Shown here piece by piece: positions 26,739 to 27,296 of a stretch of 64,000 bases of DNA. The stretch is from the NCBI RefSeq assembly GCF_003019035.1, contig NZ_CP027447.1. One strand, given 5' to 3'. The position numbers were made by a program, and so were the translations under genes. This stretch comes from Escherichia coli. GTDB taxonomy: Bacteria > Pseudomonadota > Gammaproteobacteria > Enterobacterales > Enterobacteriaceae. The notes under the pieces were generated by a model that had not been told where the DNA came from, ran no database searches, and saw nothing but the letters and a program-made list of their open reading frames with translations. The stretch's first letter is position 1, and each line of letters starts with the position of its first letter.

Positions 26739-26782
26739 GTTCCTTTCTCGTCGCTGTAATCACAGCCTCTCACGATTTACTC

Positions 26783-26806
26783 GCTCCTGCTGGCACATGC
26801 AGGAGC
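26783..26806 (+). terminator. Candidate hairpin terminator after yibL
   Basis: GCTCCTGC-tggcacat-GCAGGAGC followed by CTGTTTC; 45 nt past the yibL stop. Confidence 0.4.
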
Positions 26807-27296
26807 CTGTTTCAGAGATCGAATATTTGTAACGTTCTTAACATTATATATTCAACTCCACCTACACTTCTGAGCGATCTGAGCAGGCTAAATTCTGAAA
26901 AGCAGGTACAAATTAAATAATGATGTATCAATATCAACAATGAATTACCGCATATCAATGCTTGAAACATAATTAATTATTTAAATTTTTCTATCAGCAT
27001 CGCAAACTTCGCAATAAAACATCACTCAACTGAATATTTACCTTTCCCTGCCCTGGGCCTTTATCCGGTGAAACATTTGACATTGATTGACACCGATCAT
27101 TAAAATCCGCGCGATTAATATTATTGGCTACAAACCGAAATTGTTTGACACTTAATAACATATTCGCACAACCGATTAATACAAAAATTCTCTAACAAAT
27201 TTATTTGTCGGATATGCTCCACTCTAATCATTCATAAAAAAAATGATTGTGCCGTAATTATCAACTGTATCGGGATTATGAAAAGGAATTCATCCT

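Follow-up and report, generated by a model that had tools for sequence, protein, structure and literature searches.

The yibL-sadB spacer of Escherichia coli, a control region of a UpaG/EhaG/SadA-type adhesin operon with a predicted promoter and probable silencing by H-NS

The 558-bp spacer at positions 26739-27296 serves as the control region for an E. coli adhesin operon that was already known and consists of a sadB gene and a UpaG/EhaG-type adhesin gene. We consider it probable, at about 75%, that the spacer is the complete cis-regulatory region of this sadB-upaG operon, in which a strong promoter is silenced by H-NS and the silencing is relieved by a signal or factor. The analysis was done on a 64,000-nucleotide stretch of the E. 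coli chromosome, hereafter called the window, and the 1.8 kb around the spacer were 100% identical to E. coli SCU-301. The spacer fills the entire gap from the yibL stop codon (26736-26738) to the ATG of the SadB-like lipoprotein gene (27297). The genes of the window are arranged in the order mtlA-mtlD-mtlR, yibT, yibL, DUF3251 lipoprotein, YadA-like adhesin and lldP-lldR-lldD, and this location, with the mtl and lld operons on either side, is that of the known sadBA/upaG locus. The upstream neighbour yibL is present in 5413 of the 5426 complete E. coli genomes. The translated N-terminus of the lipoprotein contains the lipobox LAGC, and its residues 23-227 matched Salmonella SadB (PDB 4C47, deposited as 'inner membrane lipoprotein') with E=7e-69. 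No Pfam or NCBIfam model matched this protein, and the RefSeq names are 'DUF3251' and 'SadB/YajI family lipoprotein'. The adhesin gene starts 43 bp after the sadB-type gene and encodes the Pfam domains ESPR, YadA_head, YadA_stalk and YadA_anchor. Its positional orthologues are annotated as upaG in clone D i2, a strain of the CFT073 lineage, and as ehaG in O157:H7. Because the two genes are separated by only this 43-bp gap and a single conserved promoter precedes them, they are presumably co-transcribed from one promoter. According to Grin et al. (PMC3953254), sadBA forms an operon located between mtl and lld; co-transcription was inferred there also.

The initial annotation had described a long, AT-rich and non-coding spacer with no convincing ORF, located upstream of a lipoprotein/adhesin cassette, and our measurements agreed with this description on both points. 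The GC content of the spacer was 35.5%, against 48.7% for the window, and the gene that follows it encodes the SadB homologue, with the trimeric autotransporter next. Within 50 kb around the locus, 26 intergenic spacers were measured, with a median of 150 bp; the present one was the longest, followed by the mtlA-yibI spacer at 535 bp, and the length-weighted GC content of these 26 neighbouring spacers was 40.8%. The first ~90 bp had 48.9% GC, and the core at 26831-27296 had 32.8% GC (67% AT). The ORFs in the spacer encode 20-55 aa and lie on both strands, with those of 36-55 aa on the minus strand, and none of them stays intact across the other alleles. The absence of long ORFs in AT-rich DNA is expected by chance. 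No RefSeq annotation was found under the spacer in the rows listed for 1880 and 2269 genomes. The word 'leader', which had been applied to the whole 558 bp, is suitable for the ~184 nt that are predicted to be transcribed and not for the rest. The features of the locus are collected in Table 1.

Table 1. Features in and around the yibL-sadB spacer (positions in the window).
Feature	Position	Strand	Basis
yibL (120 aa), upstream neighbour	26376-26738	+	NCBIfam NF008244, E=8e-57
8-bp G+C-rich hairpin, GCTCCTGC-N8-GCAGGAGC, 45 nt past the yibL stop codon	26783-26806	+	MFE and centroid folds
AT-rich upstream region, ~32% GC, C>G on the + strand	26831-27076		Composition
Conserved distal box TTCTGAAAAG, core wTCyGAA, 183 bp upstream of the -35	26893-26902		Conservation
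Predicted sigma-70 promoter, -35 TTGACA (27077-27082), 18-bp spacer, -10 TAAAAT (27101-27106)	27077-27106	+	11/12 consensus
Discriminator and predicted 5' untranslated leader, 32% GC	27107-27296	+	Distance from the -10 to the ATG
Leader inverted repeat AATCATT-N9-AATGATT	27226-27248	+	MFE and centroid folds
Shine-Dalgarno sequence AAGGA (27283-27287) and sadB start ATG (27297-27299)	27283-27299	+	Conserved AGG/GGA
sadB-type inner-membrane lipoprotein gene, 227 aa, DUF3251, first of the operon	27297-27980	+	Match to PDB 4C47
Trimeric autotransporter adhesin gene, UpaG/EhaG/SadA type, 1648 aa	28024-32970	+	Pfam domains
Intrinsic terminator 3' of the adhesin gene, GGGCAAT-N12-ATTGCCC then TTTTCTTT; right edge of the cassette	32996-33029	+	Sequence

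The spacer was compared among 14 alleles from E. coli of different families, E. marmotae, E. ruysiae, E. albertii, E. fergusonii, two Salmonella and two Pseudocitrobacter. A single-protein scan of genome contigs gave five loci, and the more distant alleles were obtained through protein matches. For the ranking of conserved blocks, an alignment of 11 alleles was used with blocks of 9 columns. The identity of the spacer to that of the window drops from 95% to 38% across the alleles, while yibL stays at 81-99%. The overall column identity of the 14-allele spacer alignment was only 51%, with 28 of ~560 columns invariant, and every allele was 487-558 bp long with a GC content of 29-36%. Only three conserved islands were present, namely ATTTGACAT (27075-27083), TCTGAAAAG (26894-26902) and CATTAAAAT (27098-27106). 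In the 11-allele alignment, the -35 and the -10 of the predicted promoter ranked first and third in conservation among the blocks of the spacer, and the distal box ranked second, in surroundings that were near random. TTGAC and TA..AT were invariant in all 14 alleles, and the 18-bp distance between the two elements was kept in 13 of them. The promoter scan found no other promoter-like site on the + strand of 26300-27500, and the homologous promoter was the top-scoring match in the O157, Salmonella Infantis and E. fergusonii alleles when each of them was scanned independently. By our own estimate, which is based on the number of invariant columns given above, five consecutive invariant columns have a chance probability of ~1e-4, and for this reason we place the predicted operon promoter at 27077-27106. 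Weaker or alternative promoters, or read-through from yibL, may act besides it.

The position of the -10 would put the transcription start site at ~27113 and give a leader of ~184 nt; a leader of 157-226 nt is predicted from the distance between the -10 and the ATG in all 14 alleles. A mapped transcription start site of ehaG was not found in the literature search. The base two positions after the -10 is a C in 14 of 14 alleles, and a C at this position is reportedly a non-optimal discriminator that is typical of rRNA promoters. The sequence CGATTAATA occurs twice in the predicted leader, at 27112-27120 and 27173-27181, and AGG/GGA is kept 8-10 nt ahead of the ATG across the alleles. At the other end of the spacer, the hairpin behind yibL is kept in the Escherichia alleles and, with a different loop, in Pseudocitrobacter. 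The 162-nt segment containing it folded with z=-2.37, 87.5% of the cells in the alignment were paired, and three pairs change on both sides. The hairpin, which a strict terminator scan does not call, is probably the 3' end or a weak terminator of yibL; the terminator would be weak because the T run after the hairpin is short. TGGCAC occurs in this hairpin, and a sigma-54 reading was dropped after comparison with the consensus, as there is no -12 element. The AT-rich region that follows, at 26831-27076, is poorly conserved in sequence, and its composition and length are kept. It may be a binding platform for H-NS, a zone where Rho loads and shields the operon against read-through from yibL, or both.

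The initial annotation had regarded the AT content as an H-NS-type feature and had mentioned a report of H-NS repression for this adhesin family. The statement on repression was correct, and AT-rich DNA lies to either side of the promoter: the upstream part and the leader part have 32% GC each in the window and 24-37% GC across the 14 alleles. As regards the repression, PMC5012682 names UpaG among the autotransporters of UPEC that are repressed by H-NS, and PMC6956023 describes H-NS repression of trimeric autotransporters; both cite Totsika et al. 2012 (AEM 78:2179). According to PMC5012682, loss of hns reportedly derepresses UpaG. The upaG spacer of the CFT073 lineage is 95.2% identical to that of the window. 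Nothing relevant to H-NS was found in the literature on c4424 and Z5029. Grin et al. (PMC3953254) found that native Salmonella sadBA is not expressed in culture. The promoter is near-consensus and yet silent, which argues for repression. The conservation of composition and length, and not of sequence, is as a non-specific AT-binding silencer would require. In a Salmonella fur mutant, STM3690 (sadB) was down 4.2-fold and hns was up 3.1-fold (PMC3212961), and these data fit the H-NS model indirectly. Seven promoter-like sites were found, against 2.1±1.4 expected, and most of them were on the minus strand. Such an excess is typical of AT-rich DNA covered by H-NS. The high-affinity nucleation motif of H-NS is tCG(t/a)T(a/t)AATT, and it was found seven times with at most two mismatches, against 4.9±2.2 in composition-matched simulations, and in no case with at most one mismatch. 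The AT-richness itself is not extreme. At least the same AT content was found in 12.5% of the 558-bp segments of the 64 kb, mostly in the LPS-core and rhs regions, and therefore AT content alone cannot establish the binding of H-NS.

The arrangement that we propose from these observations is as follows. The yibL transcript would end at the hairpin. Behind it, ~270 bp of AT-rich DNA with a C>G skew and a single invariant box of 8-10 nt would lead to the near-consensus sigma-70 promoter, TTGACA-18 bp-TAAAAT. Transcription from this promoter would produce the AT-rich untranslated leader and reach the AAGGA ribosome-binding site and the ATG of sadB. H-NS would coat the AT-rich DNA, in contact with both flanks of the promoter, so that the operon is silent in ordinary growth, and a signal or factor that relieves the silencing would presumably turn it on. 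The H-NS step of this explanation is drawn from the literature and from composition.

The initial annotation had also supposed that the spacer was horizontally acquired, and the distribution of the locus points in the other direction. Three deeply diverged spacer families were found among the 5426 complete E. coli genomes. The family of the window comprises 1880 genomes, with 1221 at least 92.8% identical and 659 ~70% identical; the O157/EhaG-type family comprises 2269 genomes, and 1261 genomes have a K-12-type junction that lacks the cassette. The cassette is thus carried by ~77% of the genomes. Cassette and spacer occupy one site, between yibL and lldP, in E. coli, in Salmonella, in Pseudocitrobacter and in five further species or clades of Escherichia, and the order mtlADR-yibT-yibL-cassette-lldPRD was observed in the window and 13 other loci. 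The K-12-type genomes match the query only to its position 440, which corresponds to 26739 of the window and is the exact left edge of the missing segment. Their gap extends from the base after the yibL stop codon to a REP element, and the terminator of the adhesin gene is kept, as an identical copy in the yibL-lldP spacer; this indicates loss and not gain of the cassette. In O157-type strains the REP element sits just downstream of the adhesin gene. Grin et al. (PMC3953254) reported that a 5-kb deletion removed the sadBA locus from K-12. The plasmid and phage collections contained no genuine copy of the cassette, and the matches there were mis-filed chromosomes. A tRNA scan at the locus found no gene, and no integrase annotation was present. 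The adhesin gene has 52.7% GC, and only the spacer and sadB are AT-rich. These comparisons identify an ancestral locus, not an island of recent import. Allelic exchange does happen at it, as judged from the alignments: the spacer of clone D i2, close to that of the window as noted above, is followed by a sadB that is only 86.5% identical, and in O145 the spacer is 68% and sadB 90% identical.

The distal box could be explained by a specific regulator that recognises wTCyGAA, ~180 bp upstream of the promoter, and acts in addition to H-NS or in its place. All 14 alleles keep the core A.TC.GAA unchanged, and it forms the small palindrome TTC-N-GAA. The distance from the box to the -35 ranges over 158-184 bp; it is 179-184 bp in nine of the 14 alleles and 171-172 bp, about one helical turn shorter, in three. 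Against this, the main group itself varies by 5 bp and the distance in Salmonella Infantis is 158 bp, the motif is not enriched in the window (five found, 3.2 expected), and it matches no consensus that was checked by eye. In Salmonella Infantis the box forms the 3' arm of a terminator-like hairpin, which suggests a role at a transcript end instead. The assignments tried by eye against consensus sequences were CRP, FNR, Cra, IHF, ArgR, EvgA and RcsB sites, none of which fits all alleles; a minus-strand -10, which also does not fit all alleles; and a sigma-E -10 (TCTGA), for which no GGAACTT -35 lies upstream. A regulator at the box is therefore possible and no more than tentatively proposed; acting as an anti-silencer or through a DNA loop, it would complement the H-NS explanation. 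Another reading is that the long upstream part mainly insulates the operon, in that its C-rich, G-poor transcript lets Rho stop the read-through from yibL and perhaps attenuate the leader. From the yibL stop codon to the -35, the C>G skew is -0.19 to -0.43 in all 14 alleles, the local GC skew of the upstream region in the window is -0.26 to -0.29, and the yibL hairpin, which has no proper T run, would be a poor intrinsic terminator. The argument is purely compositional, however, and the skew of the leader is weak (mean -0.085, and positive in three alleles), and we regard insulation as the main function of this region as rather unlikely, on a level with the box regulator. Silencing of the predicted promoter by H-NS is preferred to both.

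The remaining explanations concern elements that such a spacer could hide. The ~184-nt leader might be a structured cis-regulatory RNA, for example a riboswitch or an RNA thermometer that masks the ribosome-binding site, since it is long, with its length conserved, and a small AGGA/UCCU hairpin can cover the Shine-Dalgarno sequence (27284-27296). The inverted repeat in the leader is also conserved with some covariation: 79% of the cells were paired and four of seven pairs change on both sides, with a varying loop length, in a small sample and with the structure taken from the window sequence. This repeat may represent a weak hairpin in the RNA or a palindrome in the DNA. The fold of the leader, however, was no more stable than that of shuffled sequences (z=+0.51), no Rfam family was assigned to it, and the Shine-Dalgarno hairpin is limited to alleles that are identical there and absent from the E. 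fergusonii, Salmonella and E. albertii alleles, and a structured leader is accordingly improbable. An independent gene for a small RNA, as had been suggested at the outset, or for a small protein is still less probable. The spacer is long enough for it, and several promoter-like sites and the longer of the ORFs (36-55 aa) lie on the minus strand, but these promoter-like sites fall in regions that are among the least conserved, the ORFs are broken in other alleles and lack annotation as described above, and no terminator-like site was found inside the spacer on either strand. The sole Rfam match at a permissive threshold was a chance hit to eukaryotic U4, with 21 bits against a gathering score of 46, and no block was conserved beyond the promoter and the box, so the small RNA was not supported. 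The phase-variable promoter that had also been suggested, working through an invertible element, slipped-strand repeats or Dam/GATC methylation, is the least credible of these explanations. In its favour, phase variation is frequent among adhesin genes, the promoter lies between the arms of an imperfect 11-nt inverted repeat (26821-26831 and 27180-27190), and the spacer contains an A8 run and three GATC sites. The arms of the repeat are not conserved in other alleles, though, and the spacer was one collinear piece in 1872 of the 1880 genomes with no inverted form seen, from which we conclude that inversion polymorphism is absent. The neighbourhood contains no recombinase gene, tandem repeats are lacking, and the A8 run, the only homopolymer, has a constant length in those class-A alleles that were examined. 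Conservation is also lacking for the GATC sites, and most alleles have lost the one in the promoter spacer. The explanation by H-NS silencing of the promoter at 27077-27106 is retained over all of these.

The comparison with known systems places the spacer among regions that have already been described. The upaG region of the UPEC CFT073 lineage and the ehaG region of EHEC O157:H7 have the same yibL-lldP position, the same gene pair and the same spacer length (557-558 bp), and H-NS repression is reported for both (Totsika et al. 2012, as cited in PMC5012682 and PMC6956023). The predicted promoter is common to the window and the ehaG-type spacer, which is only ~46% identical to the window outside the promoter and the box. 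The adhesin has 1648 aa here and 1570 aa in SCU-301, and its length differs from those of the neighbouring alleles seen. Salmonella sadBA is orthologous, lies between mtl and lld, and has the lipoprotein helper with the adhesin gene 43-44 bp later; the conserved -35/-10 and the distal box are present in it too, and it is silent in culture (PMC3953254). The spacer of Salmonella Infantis is shorter (487 bp) and its predicted leader longer (~226 nt), and the extra sequence after the promoter contains a published predicted Fur site. The native expression conditions of sadBA were stated to be unknown by Grin et al. 2013 (PMC3953254), and no later literature stating them was found. Regions silenced by H-NS, such as proU, bgl, the LEE and other UPEC autotransporters, likewise combine a good core promoter with flanks of at least 65% AT. 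An excess of promoter-like sites and, according to the literature, no expression in laboratory culture are also shared with H-NS-silenced regions in general. Unlike H-NS-silenced islands, the present locus is ancestral and syntenic, and its AT-richness does not extend to the adhesin gene.

The locus, the operon and the link to H-NS are all published, and the spacer is an ordinary, essentially known regulatory region. The position of the promoter, the distal box, the conserved length and composition, the three allele families and the mosaicism may be useful details for researchers working on these adhesins. There are hints of further specific regulation, beyond the H-NS model, in the distal box and in the C that never varies after the -10, and these two, together with the C>G skew, are leads and not findings. 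It is doubtful, although conceivable, that the features kept throughout the history of the locus while the rest was randomised, namely the box ~17 helical turns upstream, the perfect -35 with its fixed 18-bp spacer, the invariant C, and the AT content and length, constitute a regulatory architecture of which no description was found. If this were true, silencing would be countered by a factor dedicated to that task, and the promoter would be kinetically tuned and respond to ppGpp, supercoiling or the initiating NTP. The promoter at 27077-27106 and one further invariant element are the targets for finding how H-NS silencing is relieved. The adhesins UpaG, EhaG and SadA belong to uropathogenic E. 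coli, enterohaemorrhagic E. coli and Salmonella, and such a factor and tuned promoter would together decide when these cryptic adhesins are made.

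The spacer and the sadB-type gene of the window were compared with those of three other loci (L008, L007 and L006). On sequence comparison, the cassette is a mosaic produced by recombination within it. The identities of the spacer and of sadB to the window were discordant: clone D i2, the CFT073-lineage upaG strain, showed 95% in the spacer and 86.5% in sadB, and the O145 allele showed 68% and 90%, respectively. Even within E. coli, the amino acid identity of SadB varied between 66% and 99%.

The adhesin is 1648 aa long in the window, as compared with 1570 aa in SCU-301, despite 100% identity of the two strains in the 1.8 kb upstream of the gene. 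This difference in length implies variation in the number of stalk repeats. An antisense overlapping ORF of 552 nt, oloz5029, is embedded in ehaG of EDL933 and was reported as expressed (PMC9927249). By analogy, any counterpart in the UpaG-type allele of the window would be located on the minus strand.

In strain 24AR0376, an IS1 element cuts the spacer after its first 129 bp, and fimbrial usher, chaperone and subunit genes follow in place of the sadB-adhesin cassette, so that a different adhesin system occupies the site. The spacer of Salmonella Infantis contains, in an old annotation, a 64-aa hypothetical ORF that shows no conservation elsewhere. For STM3690 (Salmonella sadB), the Fur site predicted in the literature, ATAAACATTATAATTATA, falls within an insertion that is specific to Salmonella and lies directly after the conserved promoter. 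Within the window, the largest AT-rich tracts, with GC down to 26%, are found at 51-59.6 kb, and would correspond to the waa/rfa LPS-core cluster, provided that window and SCU-301 are collinear. In the SCU-301 cluster, rfaJ, rfaY and waaZ are annotated as frameshifted pseudogenes.

Coordinates of the features compared
Feature	Sequence	Position
Spacer and sadB	window	26739-27980
Adhesin gene	window	28024-32970
Adhesin gene	SCU-301 (L001)	8725-13437
Place of any oloz5029 counterpart	window	28024-32970, minus strand
First codons of sadB	O157:H7 Z892 (L003)	8697-8714
Region with IS1 and fimbrial genes	24AR0376 (L009)	3001-6129
64-aa ORF	Salmonella Infantis (L018)	1875-2069
Predicted Fur site	Salmonella Infantis (L018)	about 2100-2125
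AT-rich tracts	window	51100-59600
yibL-lldP spacer	K-12-type (L002)	3440-3535
Match to REP right part	O157:H7 Z892 (L003)	14222-14280

In the K-12-type spacer, a REP element abuts the yibL stop codon and is followed by the retained terminator of the adhesin gene. The right part of this REP matches sequence downstream of ehaG in O157-type strains, and so the K-12 deletion was probably derived from an EhaG-type ancestor.

The sadB homologue of O157:H7 Z892 begins with ATG AAC TAG, in which codon 3 is a stop, and the RefSeq gene start has therefore been moved 15 nt downstream, to an ATT codon. The upstream start is intact in other EhaG-type strains, e.g., E. coli B. From these codons, the helper lipoprotein of EHEC, the SadB homologue, may be poorly translated.
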